From positions 12,580 to 76,579 of IMG/VR virus record IMGVR_UViG_3300045988_174353: 64,000 bases of DNA, one strand, 5' to 3'. Shown here in pieces: positions 2,380 to 58,651 of the stretch. A program made the position numbers and the translations under genes. The notes under the pieces are model-generated. The model was not told the origin of the DNA and did not search any database. It was given only the letters and a program-made list of their open reading frames with translations. Numbering within the stretch: the stretch's first letter is position 1; every line of letters starts with the position of its first letter. Source of the DNA: a virus.

Positions 2380-3086
2380 ATGTCTGAAGTTGTAGATATT
2401 ACAGGTCAAAAATTTAATCGACTTCTTGTAATAAAGAGAGTTGAAAACAATGAACATGGAGAATCGAGATGGCTATGTCGGTGTACCTGCGGGAAAGAAA
2501 AAATAGTAGTAGGGAGGTACCTAAAAGCAATCACACGAAATCATGCGGATGTCTTCATAAGGAATTGGGGGCAAAACGCATATATAAGTTTTCTAAAAAA
2601 TATAATACATACGACCTGTCTGGCGAATATGGCATTGGATATACAACAAAAGGATATCCATTTTATTTCGATTTAGAAGATTATGATAAAATCAAAGATG
2701 TGTGCTGGCATTTGACAAAACTTAAGTATATAGGCGGTCATTTTCAAGGTAAACTTGTTTTATTACATGCGTTTATACTTGGTAAAAAGTCTAAAATGGT
2801 GATAGACCATATAAACCATAATACAGCAGATAATCGGAAAGAGAATTTACGAATATGCTCACATCGCCAAAATCGCATGAATCACAAGATTTATAAAAAT
2901 AACACAACAGGTTATAGTGGAGTTCGTTTTTGTAAAGCGTCAAACAAATGGACCGCCCACATAAGTGTAAATTATAAAACGATTAACCTTGGCACATTTG
3001 AGTCAATGGAGGATGCGGTCGATGTTAGAAAGAAAGCCGAAAAAGAATATTTTGGAGAATTTGCCTATAAGGGAGATTTTGAATAG
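2380..3086 (+). pseudogene. HNH homing endonuclease with AP2 DNA-binding domain, interrupted by a -1 frameshift at an A4 run (2523-2526)
   Basis: Frame 1 gives MSEVVDITGQKFNRLLVIKRVENNEHGESRWLCRCTCGKEKIVVGRYLK. Frame 0 continues SNHTKSCGCLHKE.., then the HNH motif VIDHINHNTADNRKENLRICSHRQN and the AP2-like TTGYSGVRF..KWTAHISVNYKTINLGTFES. One extra A would fuse the two frames. Confidence 0.75.
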
Positions 3087-12231: not shown

Positions 12232-12604
12232 TTTTTAATTTATTCAAAAATTTGATTTTGTCTTGCAATTTGTTTAACGTTGATAAGGCTTCGTTTCGCG
12301 CTTCTTCGACGGAAGACAGGTCTATATTGCCTAAAACGGTTTTCCCGATTTGATAAAAATCTTTATACTTGTTTTCGCAATCATATAAGTTTATTGCCCG
12401 TACTTCGGTACCGTTTGCTCCGTAGCCTTCGTAATTATTTTCTCTGAAATGCGCATCAGTCCAGCGAACGTCAATATCGGGAAACCCTTGTCCGTCCCAA
12501 AACCGAACACTTGTAATTCGTCCTATGTCGCCTTGCGCTGTTATAACTTTATCTCCGACGCGGAAATCGATTAAAGAGTCTATTGTAAATTCACCTTTCG
12601 GCAT
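12206..12604 (-). CDS. hypothetical protein (paralogue of 9057..9455)
   Basis: 132 aa with a GGAGGT RBS upstream. Contains FRVGDKVITAQGDIGRI and FYQIGKTVLGN. Confidence 0.7.
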   Translation of the reverse strand: MPKGEFTIDSLIDFRVGDKVITAQGDIGRITSVRFWDGQGFPDIDVRWTDAHFRENNYEGYGANGTEVRAINLYDCENKYKDFYQIGKTVLGNIDLSSVEEARNEALSTLNKLQDKIKFLNKLKNEGDKKNG

Positions 12605-17833: not shown

Positions 17834-17862
17834 ATTGTAACACATTCAAACAACATTGTCAA
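17834..17862 (-). promoter_or_regulatory. sigma-70/sigma-A type promoter
   Basis: Minus strand reads AAAATCGC-TTGACA (17862-17857), 17-nt spacer, TACAAT (17839-17834). Confidence 0.75.
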
Positions 17863-17887
17863 GCGATTTTACAACACTTTTGAAAAA

Positions 17888-17930
17888 TTTTTATAAAAAA
17901 TACCTGAACAGATTTGCTCTGCCCAGGTAT
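17888..17930 (-). terminator. rho-independent terminator
   Basis: Minus strand reads ATACCTG-GG-CAGA-gcaaa-TCTG-TT-CAGGTAT (17930-17900), followed by TTTTTATAAAAATTTTT. Confidence 0.75.
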
Positions 17931-20230: not shown

Positions 20231-20259
20231 ATTTTATCATAAAGAAATAATCTTGTCAA
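20231..20259 (-). promoter_or_regulatory. sigma-70/sigma-A type promoter
   Basis: Minus strand reads TTGACA (20259-20254), 17-nt spacer, TAAAAT (20236-20231). Confidence 0.65.
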
Positions 20260-20301
20260 TCATTTTCTTTACATTTACTAATTTTTTTTGAACTGACAAA
20301 T

Positions 20302-20760
20302 TTACAGATTTTCTTCCACCACAAGGCTTATCGCCGTTATATCGTTGCAGTCGACCGCGGACCGTACTCCAATAACTTTGTAATCATTATACGGACAAGG
20401 GACAATACCACGAGACTGCATAGAAGCAATATCTTCTTTATTACCCGATGCTTGCCAATCCATACCTTTCCAGAGCAACGTGTCGACACGTTTGCGAAGT
20501 TTACAATTGTCCCGAACCTGCTCGAACTCAAACGTTTCTTTATAGATATACAAGGCTGAATTATGCGCGACATAGCGTTCCACAAACTCCGAAACGGTTA
20601 ATTGCGTTCCGTTTTTTAGTTTTTGAATTTCGGTTGCCGCGCGTTTGGCAAACTCTTCGTGTTCCTGTAACTCTTTCTTAAATTCGGCAAGCATTTCTTC
20701 GTAAAGTTTTGCTCCTGCCTTAAACCCTTTTTCATAGGCTAATTCTGCTGTGTTTATCAT
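20302..20760 (-). CDS. hypothetical protein
   Basis: 152-aa ORF. Confidence 0.6.
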   Translation of the reverse strand: MINTAELAYEKGFKAGAKLYEEMLAEFKKELQEHEEFAKRAATEIQKLKNGTQLTVSEFVERYVAHNSALYIYKETFEFEQVRDNCKLRKRVDTLLWKGMDWQASGNKEDIASMQSRGIVPCPYNDYKVIGVRSAVDCNDITAISLVVEENL

Positions 20761-27175: not shown

Positions 27176-27204
27176 ATTGTAACATAACAAAAAAATATTG
27201 TCAA
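27176..27204 (-). promoter_or_regulatory. sigma-70/sigma-A type promoter
   Basis: Minus strand reads AAAACGC-TTGACA (27204-27199), 17-nt spacer, TACAAT (27181-27176). Confidence 0.75.
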
Positions 27205-27244
27205 GCGTTTTGTTGACAATATTTTAATTTTTTTTAAGATTTTT
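27191..27244. repeat. 54-bp conserved intergenic cassette, copy 1 (palindrome = terminator/operator overlapping the -35 box)
   Basis: 51 of 54 nt identical to 37938-37991. Contains the perfect inverted repeat ATATTGTCAA (27195-27204) / TTGACAATAT (27213-22), flanked by A- and T-runs. Confidence 0.85.
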
Positions 27245-27587
27245 CTATTTCGTTTTGATTTTCTTCGGATTTGCCTTGCTTTTTGCTTTTTATTTTATTG
27301 AAAATCGCTTTAATTCCTGCCGTACAGCCAAGGCAAATCAATAAAAATGGCGTTCCTGGCAGTTGCCAAAAGACAAAACAAGCCGTTCCGAAACTCGTTA
27401 ATGTAATTCCTGTCGGAGTTTTCATCCCGACGCAAAACGCTATGATATACGGCACCCACACTTCACTACTCAACACGACGAAGACTATTGCGAATATAAG
27501 AAAAGTGTGCCAATCTTTGCAGTTCTGAACAATCCACTTGAACGGTTTGAGCATTAACTCCCAAACCTTTTTGAAAAATTTCTTCAT
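27234..27587 (-). CDS. membrane protein (about 3 TM) downstream of terL
   Basis: ATG 27587 (MKKFFKKVWELMLKPF..) with three hydrophobic segments. Confidence 0.6.
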   Translation of the reverse strand: MKKFFKKVWELMLKPFKWIVQNCKDWHTFLIFAIVFVVLSSEVWVPYIIAFCVGMKTPTGITLTSFGTACFVFWQLPGTPFLLICLGCTAGIKAIFNKIKSKKQGKSEENQNEIEKS

Positions 27588-29653: not shown

Positions 29654-32077
29654 TTAAAATCTTGTTTTTAACGCTCTGCGTCTTGCGTCGTACGCCTTAA
29701 TGCAGTATGGAATATCCATATCTACATAATCGTAGACTATCGGTTGTTTTTTGTTTTCCATATATCGTTCGATTCGCCCGACCGACTGAACAATCATTGC
29801 CTTTTCTTTTATCGGTGTTGCCAAATGCAAAGTATCGAGTTCTTTAATAGAAACGCCTTCTTTAAGTAACGAATAAGTAGCCACAAGACATTGCCAGTCA
29901 ACTTTGCCCGTCAATATTTCGTTTCTGCGTTTCGCCGTTACCGCACCCGTACATAAAACGGCTTTTACACCGCGTTCGAGCAACTTCTCGACAATAACCT
30001 TGCAATGCTCGACGCGAAGTGCCAGCACGACCTGTTTTCTGCCATCTAAATCGCATTTTACGACATTATCGATAATCTTATCGGTTCGGTCGTTGTCGTC
30101 CGATAAAGCGGTGATTAAATCGTTATAAATAATCATTCCCGAACTGTCGTAAATGTCGAGCATATTTTCCACATTGTCGTAACCGTTTTGCAATTCAACT
30201 TTCTCGTGAACTGCCTGAATTGTTTTAACCAATGAGCGGTCAACTTTATACGTCGGTGCAAATTCGCCTTTATTATCTGCTCCGATATAAGCATACATTG
30301 CCCGTATCATTCCTGCGTCGGAACGCGACGGAGTAGCCGTCAATCCGATTTTAATTCGAGCGGGAATATTTGATAAAACCTTACCGAACATTTGTAATTT
30401 AGACGGGAACGAGCATACATGAGCGCATTCGTCACAAATAATAACGTCAAATTCGTTTTTATACAGTGCTGGGTCTATTCGAGAAAGTGTCTGAACGGTC
30501 GAAATTGTAACGTCCTCGCCGATTTCGAGTTTGCCTTCGGTCGTTAAACCGATTTTAATCGACGGATAGAGTTCTTCCATATCTCGCTTTGCCTGACGCA
30601 ACAAATCGCCCGTCATACACAACCAAAGGGCTTTACGACCTATTCTGTGTATTGTTTCTATTCCCATTCGAGTATTGTGAGTAATAATAAAATGGTCGGT
30701 TACATACAATTCATCTTTTGCGTCAACTGTTATGCATCTACTTATAATAGGAGCAACTTCATTAACTGATATAATTTTTCTATATGCGGTCTTGTATTTC
30801 TTTCTTTTAATATATTTACTTAAATGTTTTTCACTTGTAAATGGAACAAATAAATATAACTTAAATTCTATTCTATAATTTAATTTGCTATATCTAATTT
30901 CTCCTTTATACAAATGAGATGTTATCCTTGGGTTTATTTTCCCAGTGCCGCCTAAACTCTCTACAATTTCCAAAAAATCATTCGCTAATTGTAAAGATGA
31001 GGTACTATAAGAATAAGTCCCATTATAAATTGTTCCGTCAGTGTCAAATAAGCCTTGTAAAACAGCAAGTCGAACTTCAATAGAATTATACTTATAATCA
31101 TTAGGAATATATTTCTTTTCAAAAGTACATCCGTTTAAGCCCATTTTTCTTATATGATTAAGAATTTCACCGCCAACAAATGAAAAAGAATATTTATCTC
31201 GTTGATTTAGTTTATCTGTTGTTAATGATTTAACTTTCAAAATGATGTCTTTTTCAGTTGCAGACAATGTTACTTCTTTTTTCTTAAGACTCCCATCCCC
31301 TAATAACACTCCCAATAACCACGGATTTATAGTGACAGGTTTAGGATTAAATTGTACGGGTTGAACTATAGGTATATACAATTCTTTACTCTTTTTGTCT
31401 ATGGAATTATAATATTCATATAGTTCCGTTGCGGTTTTTATTTGAAAACCTCTTTCGTAAGACCTTGCTTCCTGACTTTGAACCGCCCATAAATGGTCTT
31501 TATCACAGATAATTTCGGTTTTGTCAGTAAACGTTAATTTGTATGCAGGGACTTCGCCTTTATCGAAAATTCCTGTAACGGTTGTTTCTTTACCGTCCGA
31601 GCCGATAACTTTATCTCCGATTACTAAATCGCCATTTCTTTTCCAGCCGTCAGGCGTATAGATTTTGGCATCCAAGGGCAGTCCTTTCCCTGCCCCGCAA
31701 GGAGCAACCAAAACGCCGCCTTTTGCCGCGATAATCGCCTTAACAGCCGTTTCCTGATAATCGTATAACGGCGATGTCGGTTTACAATCTTTTATGCTGA
31801 TTTCGCCCGCATTATTAAATCCCGTATCAAACGGAGAGTCCTTGATGAATCTCCACACAGACTTTAACAACCCGAACGGAAGAATCAATCTGTTCCCTTT
31901 TTGAGCGTATAAATACAGTTTTTCGGGGATATGTTGCCATTTTATAAGCCGTTCCTTCCCCATAAGCATTAACTGTTTGTATTCAGGATTGTCTAAAATC
32001 AGTCGAGATTTCGCCCAATCGAGAATTTCCCGCGACGGGTCGGTTATTTCTATTTGACTTCCGATAAAGGTTTGCAT
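29654..32077 (-). CDS. SF2 DEAH-box helicase interrupted by an intein
   Basis: The extein reads ..VLVAPCGAGK | TRMGIETIHR.., which restores Walker A GAGKT. It also has DECAH (motif II), LTATPSRSD (motif III) and a C-terminal QSVGRIER (motif VI). Confidence 0.85.
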   Translation of the reverse strand: MQTFIGSQIEITDPSREILDWAKSRLILDNPEYKQLMLMGKERLIKWQHIPEKLYLYAQKGNRLILPFGLLKSVWRFIKDSPFDTGFNNAGEISIKDCKPTSPLYDYQETAVKAIIAAKGGVLVAPCGAGKGLPLDAKIYTPDGWKRNGDLVIGDKVIGSDGKETTVTGIFDKGEVPAYKLTFTDKTEIICDKDHLWAVQSQEARSYERGFQIKTATELYEYYNSIDKKSKELYIPIVQPVQFNPKPVTINPWLLGVLLGDGSLKKKEVTLSATEKDIILKVKSLTTDKLNQRDKYSFSFVGGEILNHIRKMGLNGCTFEKKYIPNDYKYNSIEVRLAVLQGLFDTDGTIYNGTYSYSTSSLQLANDFLEIVESLGGTGKINPRITSHLYKGEIRYSKLNYRIEFKLYLFVPFTSEKHLSKYIKRKKYKTAYRKIISVNEVAPIISRCITVDAKDELYVTDHFIITHNTRMGIETIHRIGRKALWLCMTGDLLRQAKRDMEELYPSIKIGLTTEGKLEIGEDVTISTVQTLSRIDPALYKNEFDVIICDECAHVCSFPSKLQMFGKVLSNIPARIKIGLTATPSRSDAGMIRAMYAYIGADNKGEFAPTYKVDRSLVKTIQAVHEKVELQNGYDNVENMLDIYDSSGMIIYNDLITALSDDNDRTDKIIDNVVKCDLDGRKQVVLALRVEHCKVIVEKLLERGVKAVLCTGAVTAKRRNEILTGKVDWQCLVATYSLLKEGVSIKELDTLHLATPIKEKAMIVQSVGRIERYMENKKQPIVYDYVDMDIPYCIKAYDARRRALKTRF
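30674..31684 (-). mobile_element. intein (337 aa, residues 132-468) with LAGLIDADG homing endonuclease; class-3-like signature
   Basis: Starts GLPLDAKIYTPDGW (no Cys/Ser/Thr at position 1) and ends ..DHFIITHN|T. Block B is DKDHLW, block F is SRCITVD. Two LAGLIDADG motifs (LLGVLLGDGSL and LAVLQGLFDTDGTIY). The insert is visibly more AT-rich than the flanking extein. Confidence 0.8.
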
Positions 32078-37922: not shown

Positions 37923-37951
37923 ATTTTAACACATAAAAAAAATATTGTCAA
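37923..37951 (-). promoter_or_regulatory. sigma-70/sigma-A type promoter of the early/replication operon
   Basis: Minus strand reads AAAATGC-TTGACA (37951-37946), 17-nt spacer, TAAAAT (37928-37923). Confidence 0.7.
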
Positions 37952-37991
37952 GCATTTTCTCGACAATATTTTAATTTTTTTTAAGATTTTT
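37938..37991. repeat. 54-bp conserved intergenic cassette, copy 2
   Basis: 51 of 54 nt identical to 27191-27244. Palindrome ATATTGTC..GACAATAT with flanking A/T runs. Confidence 0.85.
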
Positions 37992-37998
37992 ATTTTGC

Positions 37999-42159: not shown

Positions 42160-42180
42160 CCCACAAAATGGATACAAACC
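42141..42180 (-). terminator. rho-independent terminator
   Basis: Minus strand has GGTTTGTA (42180-42173) pairing with TACAAACC (42157-42150), followed by TATTTTTTAT. Confidence 0.65.
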
Positions 42181-42743
42181 TAAATAATTGCCGTATTTAA
42201 CTTTTCTTTTAGTCGTTTCTTTCGAATTTGAACCGACTTTTCGTTAATGCACAACTCGTCGGCAATAACGCTTTGCTTTGTTTTAAGAATAAAGAACTGA
42301 ACCGCGAGTTTCGTATTGTCTTCGCTTAAATGAATTTCTTCGCAACGCTTTAATAATTCTGATTGCGTACAGGTCAGACAATCAAAAGGTTTCGGCGCGG
42401 TTAGTCTGTCTATCTTTGTTTCGGCTTTATCGAGTTTCTTCTTTATATAACCGATATATCCTATAAAGTAACAGAGATAAACAGTTGAGAACAAACTGAA
42501 TTTTATCGGAGCAATCAGCACCATACCCACAACAAATACAATTGCAGTAACGATTCTGCATTTAGCGTGAGTGCTACAATGATATTGATATTGAAATTGT
42601 TCGCGAATAAGCCAATGACAGAAGAAAAAGAAAATCGCTTCGACCCACTTATCAAACAGATAAGCGGGTATAATAATAGCGGCACCCGAAACGAGTACCG
42701 CCATTATCGCGTTTTTAAGTTTAATCTTCGTGCTGAATTGCAT
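42180..42743 (-). CDS. membrane-anchored protein with C-terminal sigma-region-4/LuxR-type HTH
   Basis: 187 aa. About 4 N-terminal hydrophobic helices, then LSEDNTKLAVQFFILKTKQSVIADELCINEKSVQIRKKRLKEKL. Confidence 0.6.
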   Translation of the reverse strand: MQFSTKIKLKNAIMAVLVSGAAIIIPAYLFDKWVEAIFFFFCHWLIREQFQYQYHCSTHAKCRIVTAIVFVVGMVLIAPIKFSLFSTVYLCYFIGYIGYIKKKLDKAETKIDRLTAPKPFDCLTCTQSELLKRCEEIHLSEDNTKLAVQFFILKTKQSVIADELCINEKSVQIRKKRLKEKLNTAII

Positions 42744-44540: not shown

Positions 44541-45605
44541 CTACGAATATAATATACTATTCCAAAAGCCATTGCTGATTATTTCAGATAGGCACTCTAA
44601 ACAATCTTTTGCAAATCCCTTTTCATTGTCGTACACAACGGCAAATTTTATCAGCGAGCCAAAAGTTTCAGATACGGTCTTAATAGTACTCTGAACTGGC
44701 AACATCGAACCGCTCGAATTTATAACATCGGAAGAAACAATGCTATCTTCAATTACTGTGATATCACTCAATGAACCATCGCTAAAAATATTCCAAATCG
44801 CTCCCTCATCAAATGTAGTCGGCATACATAATTCAAACTGCAAAAGGCTTCCACATAACACAGGAACTCTATATGCGTTAGTAATGATTTTGGTAGATAA
44901 ACTTGTCAAAACCGAACCAATTAAATCAGCCGCATTTGTAGTCGTTGGAACAATGTTTTGTGCCGCGGCTCGTCCTCGTTCAGGGGCTTCAGAATAACTA
45001 TCTGCAATTGCCTGGTCGTTTGTATAAGCGTGAATTGTTGTGATTCCACCACACAATATTTCTGACCCTAAACTACTCGCAACAATATTAAGGATTCGAA
45101 CCGCAATTTCTGTACTGCAAGAACCCATAGAAATCATATCCTGGTTGTTTGCAGACTCAATATTTACTCCGCGCACTATCACATTTGAATTTGACGGATA
45201 AAATTTTACCACATAATTTGCGCCAAGATTTAGAAATTCTCCATTTTGAACTGAGAACAAACCAGAACAATCCAAAACCGCAACACCGTTTGTACTAATA
45301 GTTGAGTCTGACAATATCGTATATATTTTACTATCCGAAGTAAGGACATCCGTATCAGTAGCAAATGGATAACTCGTACCGTCAATAGAAAGAGTAGCAT
45401 TAGTATCGGAATCGGTTCCTTCAACTATAACATCTTTCCATTGCCCGTAAACAGTGTCGTATTTTAACAAATATGCACATTTGCTCGGCGTTAAAATGGG
45501 GTCGCCAAATCCAACAATGTTAAAAGTTGAACTGTACCCGTCATGCAAAAACCTTGTAACGGCTCGCCCGATTCGCCCCATGCCGTAAATAAATACATTT
45601 ACCAT
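44541..45605 (-). CDS. glyceraldehyde-3-phosphate dehydrogenase (GAPDH) family protein, divergent
   Basis: Full-length collinear match to GAPDH motifs: IYGMGRIGR (INGFGRIGR), LLKYDTVYG, LDCSGLF, ISMGSCSTE (SNASCTTN), TTIHAYTNDQ, RGRAAAQNIVPTTTNAA, YRVPV and VVYDNEKGF. Confidence 0.85.
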   Translation of the reverse strand: MVNVFIYGMGRIGRAVTRFLHDGYSSTFNIVGFGDPILTPSKCAYLLKYDTVYGQWKDVIVEGTDSDTNATLSIDGTSYPFATDTDVLTSDSKIYTILSDSTISTNGVAVLDCSGLFSVQNGEFLNLGANYVVKFYPSNSNVIVRGVNIESANNQDMISMGSCSTEIAVRILNIVASSLGSEILCGGITTIHAYTNDQAIADSYSEAPERGRAAAQNIVPTTTNAADLIGSVLTSLSTKIITNAYRVPVLCGSLLQFELCMPTTFDEGAIWNIFSDGSLSDITVIEDSIVSSDVINSSGSMLPVQSTIKTVSETFGSLIKFAVVYDNEKGFAKDCLECLSEIISNGFWNSILYS

Positions 45606-51446: not shown

Positions 51447-52499
51447 TTAACCTAACGTTACGTTCCAGTTATTTTTCGTACTGTTCGCATTCGCATTATC
51501 TTTATAATAAACGTTATAAGCAATAGCAGTATAACCATTCGCACCCTCTACGTTTACTGTGATTTTTGTAAAACCCGATATTGCTTCGGCGTTCAATCCG
51601 TTTACGTCTTTTATCGAAGTGCAACTCAACGTCGCGGGAACAGCGATTATAACTCGCATTGCACCGACATCTTCGGGACAGTTAAAGTTTTTTCCTCTAT
51701 TCCAAGCCGCATTAGACTTCCTTAACGCTCTTATAACGGCACTTGTCGGCGTACCCGCCTTACTCGTTACGCTTCCGTAAAATACGTTTCTATAACCCGT
51801 TATCGCGTTCGACGTTGCATTCTTCGTCCCTGCCACAATTTTAAGATTTGGCACTTCGACCTCTAAATTGTTTTTAGGCGCGTTCGTCGCGGCTCCATGT
51901 GTAATCTTCGCCGTGAGTTTATAGTTTGTACCATCTGCAACCGTTATCTCTGTAAAACTGCCCGTCGCAGTAGTTTTTGTCGTTGTACCGTCGCTTATCT
52001 CGTAGCCCGTAGCCGTAACACCAGTTGCAGGTCCGTATTGATATGAACCCGCATTGAGCGACGCTGTATAAGTCGGAGTAACTTTCGTACCAACCTCTTT
52101 AGCACCTTGTTCATTAAGTCTTATGCTCGCCGACGGTTGGATTACGTGCGGATTTTCTGCTTTGCCTGTCAAATTTTGCAACCAATTCTGAACACTTAGT
52201 GGGTTGCCGTTTGAATCTTGATACGGGATTCTTACACTGCCCGTACTCCCAGGCGTCCACACCCCGATAGCCTTAGTTGCTACAACGTCGGCAGTCATAA
52301 AAACATGGTCTGCGTCAAGCGTAATATCTACCGCGTAATCAAGTTGCGTCCATGTTTTTACGCCATCGCCGAACTTGAATTTGTTGGTATCGACTTCAAT
52401 ACCCATTTCGCCTTTATGCAAAACGGGATTTTTAGTCGTCCAATTTGCCGCGGTAGCGTTACGAATTATTATCGTAACGTTCATATTTTTTGCCGCCAT
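51447..52499 (-). CDS. tail fibre/baseplate protein with Mtd_N-like N-terminal domain
   Basis: IIIRNATAANWTTKNPVLHKGEMGIEVDTNKFKFGDGVKTWTQLDY. Confidence 0.6.
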   Translation of the reverse strand: MAAKNMNVTIIIRNATAANWTTKNPVLHKGEMGIEVDTNKFKFGDGVKTWTQLDYAVDITLDADHVFMTADVVATKAIGVWTPGSTGSVRIPYQDSNGNPLSVQNWLQNLTGKAENPHVIQPSASIRLNEQGAKEVGTKVTPTYTASLNAGSYQYGPATGVTATGYEISDGTTTKTTATGSFTEITVADGTNYKLTAKITHGAATNAPKNNLEVEVPNLKIVAGTKNATSNAITGYRNVFYGSVTSKAGTPTSAVIRALRKSNAAWNRGKNFNCPEDVGAMRVIIAVPATLSCTSIKDVNGLNAEAISGFTKITVNVEGANGYTAIAYNVYYKDNANANSTKNNWNVTLG

Positions 52500-53770: not shown

Positions 53771-56700
53771 TTAAATTGCAAAGAACGGAGAAATTGCGCC
53801 TGTATCACCGCCACTTACCAATGAACCAAATGCCCTATACAACAACGGCGTTCCACCGCCAACCGATTCGCTATCCCTTAAAAACCACACACCTGCTGTC
53901 TCTGTTCCGACAATATTTTTTGTGTATTTCTTGATTGTTTTATAATACTGTAATTGCGAAATATTAACATTTCCCGAACCAGTAATTTCAGTATAGGACG
54001 GAAGGAATAATTTCCCTTGTGTTTCTCTCCCCGCAGGGCGAACATTGCCAGGAAGTTCAAAATCATAAACAGTGTATTTAACCTCTTTTATTACAGCCTG
54101 CAAATCATCGGGTAGTAAGTCAAAGAATGACGGTAAAATAGTTGTCTGAATGTCAGAACCTACATATAAAGTTTTGGGGTTAAGAACAGGGGTAAAATCT
54201 GTTTGTCCTTCCAAATTTATACATTCTACAAATTCAAAAATAATATGCGGGACTTCTCCTCCGTCGATGGGATATACATGCCCAGGTCTTGTTTCAACAA
54301 GCCGCACAATATATTGTCTACCGTCTTTAGTCGTGACTGTTTTAGTATCTCCAATATTCCAAACTGGAAGTGCCATATCACTTTCCGCAATACGTTTTAT
54401 ATCAGCCCAAGACGTATCGTTTAGGCTCTTTGTAACAAGCGGAACTTCAACGCTTTCAAAAAGTTGCATCCCCCATTTTTTTGCCTGCGGATGTTGAAGA
54501 TAATTTAACGATTTGCCAACGACTTGATGATATTTATTAAAGATTCGCATATCTTTTCTTTTTACCGCAGATATATACGCTTTATATGGTTCTTCTTTAT
54601 TATTATCAGAGAAATTTACTCCAAAAACAAAGTGGTAAAGACAATTATTTGGTTCGTAAGAATAATTTACAATCGCTCCTGTTGGTCCAAAATCTTTTTT
54701 ATAAGCCTCGGCATCATCCAAATAATACAATGAAAGACTTTTACAATTATTTACTGGAGTAACAGATACATAACTATTTCCATTTTCGTCCGTATTTAAT
54801 GTCATGTAATCTTTTACATTAAGATTATTTTTATTTGTCAACTCATTATATGTATAGGTTTTTGAAACAATTTCTTTATTGATTGCGTTATCAGAAGGCA
54901 ACAAAACCATATTTTTATGATATAAAATTTTATCTTTTTGAGAAGTCGCAATTTGTAAAGAAATTTCTTGCTTTTGCAAATCCAAAATATTATGCCCATT
55001 CCATTCAAGCCCCCTGTTAGGGATGTAATAGTCAAGACTCCCCGCTCTATACATCCAACGCGTTGGACCGCCTAAATAACAGCCTATTTGGACTCCTAAA
55101 AACTGATTATCATTCATCGGATAGGAACTAATAGGATAAGATATAACTTTATTATTGCTTAAATCTTTATAGCGGAATTTTTTAAGCATTGTTTCCGCAT
55201 TAGTAAAAGGGTCTATTTGTCCGTCATCGGCAAGAATCGACATATCAACACCCCCACAAATAGATACAGGGCTAATCAATGACGGGAACCATTCGCTCTT
55301 CAAAAGTCGAGTCTTTCCAAACACACTATTGAATTGACTCTTATCTATAGCACTGCCAGCCTTGTCATCTGCCAATGTGGCAAAATATACCCAACCATCG
55401 CCCGAATTTAATCCACATTGAGTATATTCCTGTATTCCGTTAGGCATTAAAGTTCCGCTAAATGAAGGAATTTGTCCCATGACTGGTAAATAAAATGCAA
55501 AATCTGATATTATGTGTTCGGTGTAAGATATCTCGCCATAATTTGTCGCAGAAAGAGGTTTAGATATCACAAAAAAAGACAATTCACCGCGCAAAAAAGC
55601 CATTACAGGAGTTGAATCTGTATCATTTGTAAATTTTAATTGAATTTTTTTGCCCGTAAACTTATTTAAGAAAATACCACTTGTAAAGTTGTTGTGAAAT
55701 AATTGACTTTTTAGTGAATATTCATCTTTCAGATTGTTAAATTTTATTTCAAAATTTTCTATATTAGGGATTTCTTTTAATCCGTCAATATTCGAAACAG
55801 AGACTAAGTTTTCTTTTCTTATGTTATTTTGTCCAATTTGTAAAATTACGGCAGGAGTCAAATGGACTTCTTGTGTTGACGAGTTAAAAGATGTGCCAAC
55901 AGTAAATATATTGCTATATCCCTCAAACTGGACTGCATACACTTTTATTCCCGACTTAAATCCAACATCTTGTTCTTTTTCGATATCTTCTGCAAATCTA
56001 TGTTTTCCTCCTAAGAGGTCGGACAACTTAAAAATCCAAGGCGATAAAACTATATTATCGCTTAAACATAAATTTTCAAATTGTAAAGTCATATCAATAT
56101 GTTCTTTATTATCTTTACTATACGATTTCTCTACGCCTATTTTATCATTAAGTTCTGTCAACATTTGCGGAGCCGTAAAAATATTAGAAGCATATATTTG
56201 AGCAATTTTATCAGTCGCCTTTTCTGAATTTAGTTTTTTGAAGTTTTCAAAATAGAATAAATCATTATTGTCCTGGTGTCCTACAAAAAAACCTAATCGA
56301 GTCGCATATCCATAATTATCTGTAAAAACGGTAAGTTTTTGTTTACTTCCTGCATAGTCCTTACTATTAGAGCCAAAGAAAAGTTCTTTCCATGTTTTAG
56401 AACTATAATCAAAGACGTCTCCATTGTCATCAATAGCGTTCACAAATGGTTCAAAAGCAGAAATAAATGGACCTTGCGTATAATTATCATTCATTTTTAC
56501 ATTAAAACATAAGTTATTCCCCGCCGCAAAAGCCTGAACATCGGAATAAAATTTTTTGCCATCAGTCAAAATATATCCTGCGTTAATATCATAATCATTG
56601 CGAAATTCGTAGACGCCGATAATATCATCAGCCGTATAAGGAGATAAAAAACTAAATATACGATTAAAAGAATTTACCGAAGATGAAGCGTCAACAATAT

Positions 56701-58651
56701 TTTCATCTTCATAAAATGAACAATCGTCTGCCCAATAAAAATATTCCTTTTCATTTTCGGCACGTCTAACACTTTCATTATAGGACATAATTCTCCATGT
56801 CCTATACTTTGCAAAAACCGAGGTAAACCAATTTTTTAAGACATAATTCTTTATTCCATAATAAACACATGAAATATAATTGTTAAATATCGAATACTCT
56901 CTATGGTAGATAACTACATCATTTTCATAGTTTGAGTTGTACACACTGCCTAACTGTTGCAAAGTCTCTGTGCCATCATGACCCCAAAATGCTTTATATC
57001 TTGCATTGATTTGAAGGGCTTTGTTGCCAAATCTATTAACTTTTTCCTTTTGAAAAACTGAATCTTGTTCGATAAGTGTTAAACTATCCGAAGTGTTATC
57101 ATTTATAACAATATCATCTTTTTCATTATCCTTAGAATGGACAATTGCCCCATTATAAAATCCTTGATAATCAACAATAAAAAATATTGCCTTTAAGCCC
57201 AAAGAGGCATTTTTATACGGATTGAATACCGAAGAAAATACGTTATATACAACTCCATTTTTTTCTTCGCTGTTTATTCCTTGAGCAGATTCCCACAACT
57301 TAAATACAGAACTACTGTCATAGACCTGGCTAATTTCAACGTCTTCATCATCATCTTCTTTGAATTGTTCTCTTACTTCTGCATTACTAAGGATTCCGTA
57401 AGGGCAAAAATACTCCATTCTTGTCAGCAAATTTTGAACATAAGTATATTTATTGTCATTATAAAATCCAGGATAAGTATAGAGTTTTCCCCAACCCTCG
57501 ATATACCGACTACCGATATCATAGCCCACGGTACAAAAAAGATATTCCGCCATCTCATCAATGCTTGTGGGGATATTATCTTTATGTAAATCACTCCAAT
57601 CTTGCGACAACGCATTCCTTTCAGTATTTAATTTTACAAGTTTTGAAATATCTTGTTGGCATAAAATATATTTTTGCTGTGCAGAAGATTTAGTCCCGTC
57701 TTTTTTAATATGTATCACATTTATTTTCTTGTAGTAACACATATACATTTTATTTATGCGATAAATCGGATAGCCTAATTCTATACGCATATTTTCAATC
57801 GTCATCAATGCGTTATCATTATTCCTAAAATTTACACACTCAACAGACCTACAAATCCCATCTTTTGATAAAGCGTCGGAATAATTTCTACGCAAATTAT
57901 CGCAATAATTATCACTTGTCATTGAACCTGTAATAATATTCACATTTTGCGGATTTTTATCAAATTCCCCATTACGTTTTGATATGTCTAAAGCATATAT
58001 AACATCATCTTTTACATAAGGAATCATGTCTTTTACAATAAATAAAGATGACAAAAAACTCCGCAGTGTGGGGGCGTTAAAAGTTTTTTCGGGAGCCAGA
58101 ACATCACCGAAAATATCAGACAATGTCTCACTTAACGAATATTTCTTTACAAATTCCCACTTAAATGTTTTTTGCCCGTAATAACTATAAACTTGTTTTT
58201 TATATATCGGAGAATATAATTCTACAATAGTTGTTGCTTTATCCCAAACGTTTATTTTTCGACCTTCAAGAGGTTGAGTTATTGAAATATTAGGTAACTG
58301 TATCGTTTCGAGTTTTTTCGTTTCACTCATTAACTCGATTTTATATTTATACCGTCCTTCTTCTTCCGAATCGCCTAAACGCAATACTTCTTCCGTAAAC
58401 TGGTCTACAAGTAAATGTTTATAAAATTTCGGTTGCGGATTCGTTTCGTCAAAAGGATATCCAATAAATTTATAATCTTTATCTGTAAAAGAATAAATAA
58501 AAACGTCATCATAAGGCATTAATCCTTTTATTTTGCTAACGTTATTTATTATAATGGAGCCGCTATCCAAAGTTTCGTTATACTCCTCTGCAAAAGTGGC
58601 TCCTTGTAATATATCATATTGTATTCCGTTAATTGTCGCTCTTAAATCCAT
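53771..58651 (-). CDS. giant tail protein (1626 aa; Tal/minor-structural-protein-like N-terminus)
   Basis: The N-terminus MDLRATINGIQYDILQGATFAEEYNETLDSGSIIINN resembles the N-terminal region of phage minor structural/tail-associated proteins. Very AT-rich compared with its flanks. Confidence 0.65.
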   Translation of the reverse strand: MDLRATINGIQYDILQGATFAEEYNETLDSGSIIINNVSKIKGLMPYDDVFIYSFTDKDYKFIGYPFDETNPQPKFYKHLLVDQFTEEVLRLGDSEEEGRYKYKIELMSETKKLETIQLPNISITQPLEGRKINVWDKATTIVELYSPIYKKQVYSYYGQKTFKWEFVKKYSLSETLSDIFGDVLAPEKTFNAPTLRSFLSSLFIVKDMIPYVKDDVIYALDISKRNGEFDKNPQNVNIITGSMTSDNYCDNLRRNYSDALSKDGICRSVECVNFRNNDNALMTIENMRIELGYPIYRINKMYMCYYKKINVIHIKKDGTKSSAQQKYILCQQDISKLVKLNTERNALSQDWSDLHKDNIPTSIDEMAEYLFCTVGYDIGSRYIEGWGKLYTYPGFYNDNKYTYVQNLLTRMEYFCPYGILSNAEVREQFKEDDDEDVEISQVYDSSSVFKLWESAQGINSEEKNGVVYNVFSSVFNPYKNASLGLKAIFFIVDYQGFYNGAIVHSKDNEKDDIVINDNTSDSLTLIEQDSVFQKEKVNRFGNKALQINARYKAFWGHDGTETLQQLGSVYNSNYENDVVIYHREYSIFNNYISCVYYGIKNYVLKNWFTSVFAKYRTWRIMSYNESVRRAENEKEYFYWADDCSFYEDENIVDASSSVNSFNRIFSFLSPYTADDIIGVYEFRNDYDINAGYILTDGKKFYSDVQAFAAGNNLCFNVKMNDNYTQGPFISAFEPFVNAIDDNGDVFDYSSKTWKELFFGSNSKDYAGSKQKLTVFTDNYGYATRLGFFVGHQDNNDLFYFENFKKLNSEKATDKIAQIYASNIFTAPQMLTELNDKIGVEKSYSKDNKEHIDMTLQFENLCLSDNIVLSPWIFKLSDLLGGKHRFAEDIEKEQDVGFKSGIKVYAVQFEGYSNIFTVGTSFNSSTQEVHLTPAVILQIGQNNIRKENLVSVSNIDGLKEIPNIENFEIKFNNLKDEYSLKSQLFHNNFTSGIFLNKFTGKKIQLKFTNDTDSTPVMAFLRGELSFFVISKPLSATNYGEISYTEHIISDFAFYLPVMGQIPSFSGTLMPNGIQEYTQCGLNSGDGWVYFATLADDKAGSAIDKSQFNSVFGKTRLLKSEWFPSLISPVSICGGVDMSILADDGQIDPFTNAETMLKKFRYKDLSNNKVISYPISSYPMNDNQFLGVQIGCYLGGPTRWMYRAGSLDYYIPNRGLEWNGHNILDLQKQEISLQIATSQKDKILYHKNMVLLPSDNAINKEIVSKTYTYNELTNKNNLNVKDYMTLNTDENGNSYVSVTPVNNCKSLSLYYLDDAEAYKKDFGPTGAIVNYSYEPNNCLYHFVFGVNFSDNNKEEPYKAYISAVKRKDMRIFNKYHQVVGKSLNYLQHPQAKKWGMQLFESVEVPLVTKSLNDTSWADIKRIAESDMALPVWNIGDTKTVTTKDGRQYIVRLVETRPGHVYPIDGGEVPHIIFEFVECINLEGQTDFTPVLNPKTLYVGSDIQTTILPSFFDLLPDDLQAVIKEVKYTVYDFELPGNVRPAGRETQGKLFLPSYTEITGSGNVNISQLQYYKTIKKYTKNIVGTETAGVWFLRDSESVGGGTPLLYRAFGSLVSGGDTGAISPFFAI

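Follow-up and report, generated by a model that had tools for sequence, protein, structure and literature searches.

A predicted class 3 intein with a LAGLIDADG endonuclease in the Walker A motif of a phage superfamily 2 helicase

Why is the ATP-binding loop of a phage helicase gene interrupted by 337 codons, and is the interrupting segment able to leave the protein by splicing and to move between genes? The question is raised by a 64,000-nucleotide (nt) stretch of viral DNA (IMG/VR record IMGVR_UViG_3300045988_174353, positions 12,580 to 76,579; the whole stretch is called the window below), in which a helicase gene of 807 amino acids (aa) carries an insert inside its Walker A motif. On the basis of sequence comparison, structure prediction and the divergence among alleles, the 1011-nt insert is read, with a probability of roughly 85%, as an active and mobile class 3 intein in the Walker A loop of the superfamily 2 (SF2) helicase of a phage replication module. 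The original prediction, made from the letters alone, had placed a 337-aa insert at 30674-31684 inside the P-loop of this 807-aa open reading frame (ORF), and the insert was seen there precisely between Lys and Thr (K|T). The precursor gene and its parts are given below.

29654..32077, minus strand: precursor gene, SF2 (ResIII/DEAD-like) helicase plus predicted intein, 807 aa, 91.6 kDa (ORF list, Pfam and molecular weights)
31685..32077, minus strand: N-extein, residues 1-131, the last residues being Walker A G-A-G-K (CG[SGA]GK[T/S] unbroken in intein-free homologues)
30674..31684, minus strand: predicted intein, 337 aa (protein residues 132-468), Gly1 to Asn337, 1011 nt, 38.5 kDa
29654..30673, minus strand: C-extein, residues 469-807, with motifs II, III and VI and Helicase_C (Pfam), the first residue being Thr+1 (nt 30671-30673)

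Position and boundaries of the insert

The junctions read APCGAGK|GLPLDAKIYTPDGW at the N-terminal end and DHFIITHN|TRMGIE at the C-terminal end, with the insert lying between the Walker A Lys and Thr. The spliced sequence was used for the search of homologues, by which hundreds were found, and the insert was counted in the best 120 of them. It was present in eight of the 120 best helicase homologues, each time separating Lys from Thr in Walker A, and GxGK[T/S] was unbroken in at least 96; the junction was confirmed by this alignment of the exteins to intein-free homologues, which had been proposed as a check. All eight insert-bearing alleles start with GLPL and end with [IV]THN|T. The intein-free protein P0091 has 96% identity along the full 470 aa, and its locus is syntenic (primase-polymerase, 136-aa protein, helicase, 155-aa protein and large terminase). 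Since the conserved GK[T/S] of the intein-free homologues is restored by the boundary K|G...N|T alone, the boundary cannot be moved, and a shifted one, by which a class 1 intein with Cys1, Ser1 or Thr1 was to be obtained, was ruled out. Being in frame, missing from close homologues and restoring the motif upon removal, the insert would be classified by its sequence as an intein.

The GC content of the insert is 31.8%, compared with 43.5% and 42.2% for the two exteins, as expected from the claim that the insert is the more AT-rich part. The claim can be refined, because the low GC begins only after block B: the values within the intein are 41.9% for the first 70 codons, 29.4% for the endonuclease part and 27.9% for the last 37 codons. 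No ORF of 80 aa or more was found opposite to the insert strand in the ORF list of the window.

Excision in silico gave a 470-aa protein in which GAGKT is regenerated as motif I, as had been predicted, together with DECAH as motif II, TAT as motif III and QSVGR as motif VI. The molecular weights computed from the sequence were 53.1 kDa for the spliced helicase and 38.5 kDa for the intein. With the insert removed, Pfam ResIII scored 79 bits instead of 58, and the cut-offs were now passed by DEAD and Helicase_C as well; the host protein was also matched by PHROG 16 'DNA helicase' (E 5e-50). The predicted host protein after excision has the features of an SF2 helicase, namely motifs I, II, III and VI and both RecA-like domains. 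The name 'DEAH helicase' given by the original prediction held for the helicase identity but not to the letter, because motif II is DECAH, a DExH-type variant, and the label is only approximate.

Domains and class 3 signature

A class 3 intein is defined by a non-nucleophilic residue 1, by Trp, Cys and Thr (WCT) at B:12, F:4 and G:5, respectively, by Thr or Ser at +1, and by an obligate block F Cys with a class-specific branched intermediate (PMC2807308). The mechanism is also described in PMC5222942, and C124-H65-T143 plus W67 form the class 3 catalytic centre of MchDnaB1 (PMC7664689). Class 3 inteins are monophyletic according to Tori & Perler (2011), as cited in PMC3196547. The features of the insert that are needed for the comparison are listed in the order of the intein residues.

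31475..31684, minus strand: N-terminal half of the Hint domain, blocks A and B, intein residues 1-70, similar to MchDnaB1/MsmDnaB1 residues 4-71 (E ~1e-10), GC 41.9%, extein-like
31493-31495, minus strand: His64 (B:10), in Hint block B
31487-31489, minus strand: Trp66 (B:12), in Hint block B
30743..31474, minus strand: linker and predicted LAGLIDADG homing-endonuclease domain, intein residues 71-314, AT-rich, GC ~29% (Pfam, profile and Foldseek)
31286..31318, minus strand: LAGLIDADG motif 1, LLGVLLGDGSL, residues 123-133, with putative catalytic Asp130 (nt 31295-31297)
31025..31069, minus strand: LAGLIDADG motif 2, LAVLQGLFDTDGTIY, residues 206-220, with putative catalytic Asp216 (nt 31037-31039)
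30674..30742, minus strand: C-terminal part of the Hint domain, blocks F and G, intein residues 315-337 (alignment to MchDnaB1)
30734-30736, minus strand: Cys317 (F:4) in SRCITV, predicted class 3 nucleophile, aligned with C124 of MchDnaB1
30674-30682, minus strand: Thr335-His336-Asn337, aligned with T143, H144 and N145 of MchDnaB1

When all PDB sequences were searched with the insert by phmmer, just five significant matches were obtained (E 1e-10 to 2e-8), namely MchDnaB1 (6rix and 6riy), MsmDnaB1 (6bs8, 'class 3 DnaB intein'), wild-type gp41-1 and WCT-grafted gp41-1 (6riz). The alignments were in register at both termini, with H64, W66, C317, T335, H336 and N337 of the insert equivalent to H65, W67, C124, T143, H144 and N145 of MchDnaB1, respectively. 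Gly as the first residue, the non-contiguous Trp-Cys-Thr signature (H64-L-W66, C317 and T335) and the Hint-like ends with HN followed by Thr at +1 (H336-N337|T+1), all of which had been read from the letters, were recovered in this way. With a profile of the 48-member family, these PDB matches rose to E 1e-25 and the PI-SceI endonuclease domain was matched at E 6e-21. As to the placement in the class 3 clade, the solved structures that come nearest belong to class 3 DnaB inteins, yet class 1 gp41-1 scores equally.

From the metagenomic homologues of the insert, 67 complete relatives were extracted with the HN terminus as the selection criterion. His at B:10, Cys at F:4 and Thr at G:5 are present in 67/67 of them and Trp at B:12 in 65/67; the terminal His336 and Asn337, on which the selection was based, are also invariant (67/67), and Cys317 is invariant in the 48-sequence alignment as well. 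The invariant or near-invariant signature in these relatives means that the whole detectable family carries WCT. At residue 1, 42 of the relatives have Ala, 13 have Gly, six have Ser and six have another residue (Leu, Glu, Gln or Pro), and residue +1, which is Thr here, is T or S in the relatives. The eight helicase alleles all have Gly1 and the H-N|T+1 pattern. Gly1 was also considered as a novelty, and this was rejected, because 13 of the 67 relatives start with Gly and their hosts include SNF2-like and Cas4-like proteins. The six family members that start with Ser keep WCT nevertheless. Judged by sequence, the insert would belong to class 3 in every defining position, i.e. a non-nucleophilic residue 1, Trp at B:12, Cys at F:4, Thr at G:5 and Thr at +1.

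A structure of the insert was predicted by AlphaFold2 (AF2) with the 48-sequence family alignment. The model had a mean predicted local distance difference test score (pLDDT) of 95.5 and a predicted template modelling score (pTM) of 0.92. The top matches in the PDB by Foldseek were TliVMA, PI-SceI, PhoVMA and PI-PfuI (E 1e-17 to 1e-9, query-normalised template modelling score (TMq) 0.6-0.72), and class 3 mini-inteins were matched to both ends of the model (target-normalised score (TMt) 0.75-0.82); the Foldseek probability was 1.00 for PI-SceI, TliVMA, MchDnaB1 and MsmDnaB1. According to the model, a Hint fold would be formed by the N- and C-terminal segments of the insert. The lack of such a fold had been named in advance as an outcome that would speak against an intein; what AF2 and Foldseek returned were Hint matches.

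The two LAGLIDADG motifs announced by the original prediction were located at residues 123-133 and 206-220, and Pfam LAGLIDADG_3 was matched by the insert with E 1e-11. Among the 67 relatives, the position of Asp130 is occupied by Asp in 61 and by Glu in two, and that of Asp216 by Asp in 63. Foldseek placed I-DmoI on the nuclease lobe (TMt about 0.54) and also matched the nuclease domain of PI-SceI. The order of secondary structures in the model fits the pseudo-dimeric alpha-beta-beta-alpha-beta-beta-alpha fold, and the insert is thereby predicted to carry a monomeric two-motif LAGLIDADG endonuclease fold.

Allele comparison, proposed splicing and alternatives

As a homing endonuclease, the central LAGLIDADG domain would cut the fused K|T site of intein-free helicase alleles at co-infection, and the intein would then be copied into the helicase allele by gene conversion. 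The fused extein site of the window around the K|T junction reads ...GGGGCAGGGAAA|ACTCGAATGGGA..., and the distribution of the intein among the helicase homologues is sporadic, which, like the low GC of the endonuclease module, is taken as a sign of mobility. The history of the module was compared by using window 30743-31474 with L003:3001-5454 and L006:1001-3457. Synonymous divergence (dS) and the ratio of nonsynonymous to synonymous divergence (dN/dS) were calculated by the Nei-Gojobori method for four intein-containing alleles (window, L005, L003 and L006), with the following dS values.

Window versus L003: extein 0.74, Hint 0.24, endonuclease 1.66
Window versus L005: extein 0.375, Hint 0.339, endonuclease 0.10
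L003 versus L006: extein 1.90, Hint 1.76, endonuclease 0.85

Between L003 (protein P0093) and the window, protein identity was 92-93% in the exteins and 96% in the first 70 intein residues, and nucleotide identity was 96% in the 90-nt bin of gene nt 1351-1440, which covers the C-terminal junction and the 18 intein codons before it. From about intein residue 65 to 315, the identity was 46% for protein and 50-60% for nucleotides, compared with 91-96% for nucleotides in the flanks. The endonuclease module of P0093 is closest to that of P0095 (78%), a protein of which the exteins are just 77% identical to those of P0093. These discordant identities and dS values indicate that the segment from block B to block F has a history of its own, apart from the Hint ends and the exteins. 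The simplest explanation would be that inteins sharing one insertion site have recombined through crossovers within their conserved Hint ends, which suggests the exchange of a cassette.

The flanks of the insertion site (window about 30650-30673 and 31685-31710) were compared with the intein-free alleles L001:6001-7413 and L007:501-1916. L001, which has 90% nucleotide identity overall, showed 20 mismatches in the 60-nt bin of the insertion point versus about five per bin elsewhere (binomial P ~1e-7). Intein-free L007 and intein-containing L006, which are 96.1% identical, have five differences at +3 to +9 past the junction. Such divergence of the target site would fit endonuclease-resistant homing sites and co-conversion tracts alike. 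It is tentatively proposed, at slightly less than even odds, that in this population of related phages the endonuclease module is an exchangeable cassette, anchored by the Hint ends and passed between inteins already present at the P-loop site, and that intein-free alleles persist through homing sites diverged within ~20 nt on either side, as in an arms race between endonuclease and target site. If this is true, the arms race is visible at the resolution of a single locus.

The same data bear on a rather unlikely alternative, by which the intein splices and its LAGLIDADG endonuclease is inactive, the element having reached a late stage of the homing cycle at which it is passed on by vertical inheritance or general recombination only. 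The endonuclease module is the least conserved part (39-49% identity among alleles), its dN/dS of 0.10-0.31 is above that of the Hint domain, and intein-free alleles dominate the database (130 cluster members for P0091 and 122 for P0094, versus three for the window allele), all of which this alternative would accommodate. It is opposed by the intact D130 and D216, by the near-invariant K191, R205 and G211, and by dN/dS values far under 1 (0.10 and 0.17 in the two close allele pairs). The endonuclease dS between the window and L005 is, moreover, much smaller than the extein one, indicating recent lateral movement, and the hyper-divergence of the target site in both intein-free partners suggests continuing pressure by the endonuclease. 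An active LAGLIDADG endonuclease is likely, with less certainty than splicing.

For splicing itself, the selection on the Hint domain was estimated from the same alleles. The dN/dS was 0.02-0.08 for the Hint domain and 0.03-0.09 for the exteins, and in distant alleles the protein identity was 72-80% for the Hint ends versus 59-65% for the exteins; the Hint domain is under strong purifying selection. The insert is by far most likely an active splicing element. Translation would give a 91.6-kDa precursor with a split P-loop, in which the helicase is proposed to be unable to bind ATP on account of the split. The two Hint halves (residues 1-70 and about 315-337) would fold together. With Gly as its first residue, the intein is unable to undergo the usual N-S/O acyl shift; Cys317, activated by His64 and positioned together with Trp66 and Thr335, would instead attack the peptide bond Lys(-1)-Gly1, with a branched thioester bearing the N-extein as the product. 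The N-extein would then be moved onto Thr+1 by transesterification, the cyclisation of Asn337, assisted by His336, would free the 38.5-kDa intein, and an O-N shift would complete the 53.1-kDa helicase with intact GAGKT. This order of events (Cys317 thioester, Thr+1 ester, Asn337 cyclisation) very probably applies, by homology to the class 3 inteins in which it has been studied.

It is improbable that a class 2-like route, in which Thr+1 attacks the N-terminal junction directly, or some other chemistry outside class 3 is used and that Cys317 is structural only. The non-nucleophilic residue 1 also holds for class 2 and would be compatible with it; the direct attack of a Thr hydroxyl on an amide is, however, energetically unfavourable. 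The Cys at F:4 is kept by all 67 relatives, and the inteins with the nearest solved structures have been shown by experiment to be of class 3. Class 2 inteins are, in addition, known only in archaeal KlbA and are without WCT (PMC2807308, PMC3196547).

Still less probable, and to be given very low odds, is a degenerate non-splicing intein in a dead helicase gene, i.e. a pseudogene like Arth_1007, the Arthrobacter pseudogene intein with which the window intein has Gly1 in common (PMC2807308, PMC3196547). All catalytic residues are present here, unlike in Arth_1007, 807 codons of open frame are kept, and both the Hint domain and the exteins are under strong purifying selection (dN/dS 0.02-0.09). 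The same termini are also kept by eight alleles with extein identity down to about 60%. The gene lies, furthermore, within an otherwise intact replication and packaging block (RecE-like exonuclease, DUF669/SSB-like protein, D5-type primase, resolvase-like protein, helicase and large terminase) and adjoins the terminase gene. An ordinary accessory domain of the helicase family, which had been named beforehand as the finding that would overturn the intein, has nothing more than the continuous reading frame in its favour and is refuted, since most homologues are without the segment (at least 96 of the 120 closest, one of them with 96% identity), the same module is found at the P-loops of unrelated PhoH, AAA_24, DnaB, RecA, DnaC-like loaders, terminases and Cas4-like nucleases, a Hint fold is predicted for it, and it splits a motif that is unable to work when interrupted.

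Several points weigh against the insert as an active, mobile class 3 intein. The branched intermediate is carried over from demonstrated inteins with ~30% identity over the aligned N-terminal ~90 residues (Foldseek), and the score of gp41-1, a class 1 intein, equals that of the class 3 DnaB inteins. Arsp-FB24 Arth_1007, the one Gly1 intein that the founding papers discuss, is a pseudogene that does not splice (PMC2807308, PMC3196547); it has neither Cys at F:4 nor His at B:10 (PMC3196547), both of which are present in the window intein. WCT grafted onto gp41-1 gave no splicing (PMC7664689), by which the WCT triplet alone is no guarantee of activity. The activity of the endonuclease could also have been lost with the fold kept, and co-conversion tracts can explain the diverged target sites of the intein-free alleles as well.

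Other features of the window and known systems

The 807-aa protein is identical to the database protein P0090, which is labelled just 'superfamily II DNA or RNA helicase'; the public labels of the gene are 'superfamily II helicase' or 'chromatin remodeling complex ATPase', and the intein is unannotated. The gene had no match by megablast in 50,697 phage records, and no relative of the full protein was found in 185,579 species-representative genomes. The terminase of the window is less than 30% identical to any of the 50,697 phage records, and the phage has no close cultured relative. Distant homologues point to Firmicutes hosts, and the phage is uncultivated and probably of gut origin.

The other features recorded in the window are as follows.

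2469-3086, plus strand: 205-aa ORF with HNH_3 and AP2 domains, on the strand opposite to its neighbours
42180-42743, minus strand: AgrB-like protein (Pfam PF04647, E 3.5e-9)
44541-45605, minus strand: 354-aa protein with Gp_dh_N and Gp_dh_C (glyceraldehyde-3-phosphate dehydrogenase domains)
51447-52499, minus strand: 350-aa protein with an Mtd_N (major tropism determinant N-terminal) domain
17834-17907, 20231-20304, 27176-27249 and 37923-37996: four copies of a 74-nt AT-rich intergenic element, 62-88% identity, with the core TTGTCAAGC...TTGACAAT

The ORF with HNH_3 and AP2 domains probably encodes a free-standing homing endonuclease of the HNH type, which would make it a second mobile element in the window. 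The AgrB-like gene may be a phage-borne gene for the processing of a quorum-sensing peptide, and it hints at a Firmicutes host. The gene with glyceraldehyde-3-phosphate dehydrogenase domains is a candidate auxiliary metabolic gene, unusual for a phage. The Mtd_N gene adjoins large structural ORFs, including that of a 1626-aa protein at 53771-58651, and no template repeat of the diversity-generating retroelement type was found near it in the window. The 74-nt element probably serves as a promoter or operator that recurs where operons meet.

Relatives of the intein are abundant. By tblastn with the intein in the 50,697 phage records, relatives at 30-37% identity were found in 843 records, 757 of which cover at least 80% of the query. 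The hosts are terminases, helicases, PhoH, DnaC-like loaders and SNF2 proteins, and the phages include those of Mycobacterium, Salmonella, Vibrio, Klebsiella, Pseudomonas, Clostridium and others; the nearest non-helicase relative of the intein is 43% identical. The PHROG families 'terminase', 'primase' and 'helicase loader' are matched by the intein alone, since some of their members bear inteins. In RefSeq phage records, intein-bearing P-loop ATPases are called 'DarB-like antirestriction', for example gp42 of Clostridium phage phi8074-B1 (L008:1234-2937), a DnaC/IstB-like loader with GNGK|AQPL...THN|T; as this label is found on unrelated hosts with nothing but the intein in common, it has probably spread through the intein as an artefact of annotation. 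A second recurrent site was observed in PhoH proteins (P0002, P0007, P0011 and about 30 others), where a family intein of the class 3 type lies after 'MRGR' and not in the P-loop, and in Cas4/PD-(D/E)XK-like nucleases further family members follow 'HK' or 'YK'.

In the literature, class 3 inteins occupy helicase-like proteins (DnaB, RecG, SNF2 and terminases), mostly at the ATPase P-loop (PMC2807308), for which Lys|Thr is the 'classic' insertion (PMC5050341). NR held 1701 class 3 inteins in 2020 (PMC7891396), and inteins in a mycobacteriophage DEXDc/HELICc helicase had already been listed (PMC5050341). With these 1701 catalogued inteins, the published helicase case and the 843 phage records, the intein joins a well-populated and well-understood class, and its situation, at K|T in the P-loop of a helicase-like ATPase from a phage, is archetypal for class 3 (PMC2807308, PMC5050341). 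No new mechanism is opened and no long-standing question is resolved by it; once the intein is recognised, both the annotation of the gene and its predicted mature product are corrected, and an endonuclease-bearing class 3 intein with Gly1 in an SF2 helicase is added to a class studied mostly in DnaB and terminases. The near-identical alleles with the intein, without it and with a swapped cassette form a compact natural system for homing specificity, target-site resistance and module exchange in phages. The cassette behaviour and the target-site divergence alone exceed routine annotation, and these are incremental.

The class history given by the original prediction, with the DnaB intein of mycobacteriophage Bethlehem (MP-Be DnaB) as the prototype and the Deinococcus radiodurans Snf2 intein as a further case, agrees with PMC2807308 and PMC3196547. 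MP-Be DnaB, the class 3 prototype (PMC2807308), is likewise phage-encoded and full length (341 aa versus 337 aa here) and, by its published description, likewise has a helicase ATPase P-loop, a non-nucleophilic residue 1, WCT, a THN end and Thr+1. It differs in the host, which is a DnaB-type (RecA-fold hexameric) helicase rather than an SF2 ResIII/DEAD-like one. The Deinococcus radiodurans Snf2 intein is, according to Brace et al. (2010) as cited in PMC3196547 and PMC5222942, also of class 3 and in an SF2-type ATPase/helicase, with Snf2 as the host in place of the ResIII/RadD-like protein here. Related inteins that start with Gly ('GLGK|GQP...') were found in the metagenomic SNF2 proteins P0027 and P0075.

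The M. smegmatis and M. chimaera DnaB-1 inteins (6bs8, 6rix and 6riy) are the best PDB sequence matches, with ~30% identity over the N-terminal ~90 residues (Foldseek), and share the GK|S/T insertion point in the P-loop. They are mini-inteins of ~140 aa without an endonuclease, with Ala first and in bacterial chromosomal genes, whereas the window intein has a 244-aa LAGLIDADG insert and Gly first. The mycobacteriophage terminase intein TerL1-a and other phage ATPase inteins (PMC5050341 and the 843 records) occupy the same Walker A K|T site and are homologous (30-37% over the full length); their hosts are different, and most of them start with Ala-Gln-Pro-Leu instead of Gly-Leu-Pro-Leu. PI-SceI (VMA1 intein), TliVMA and PI-PfuI have the same two-domain layout of Hint and LAGLIDADG and are the best Foldseek matches of the whole model. 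They are, in contrast, class 1 inteins (Cys1 and Asp at F:4) of V-ATPase or ribonucleotide reductase hosts with 13-16% identity, and are at least 100 aa longer, with extra DNA-recognition regions.

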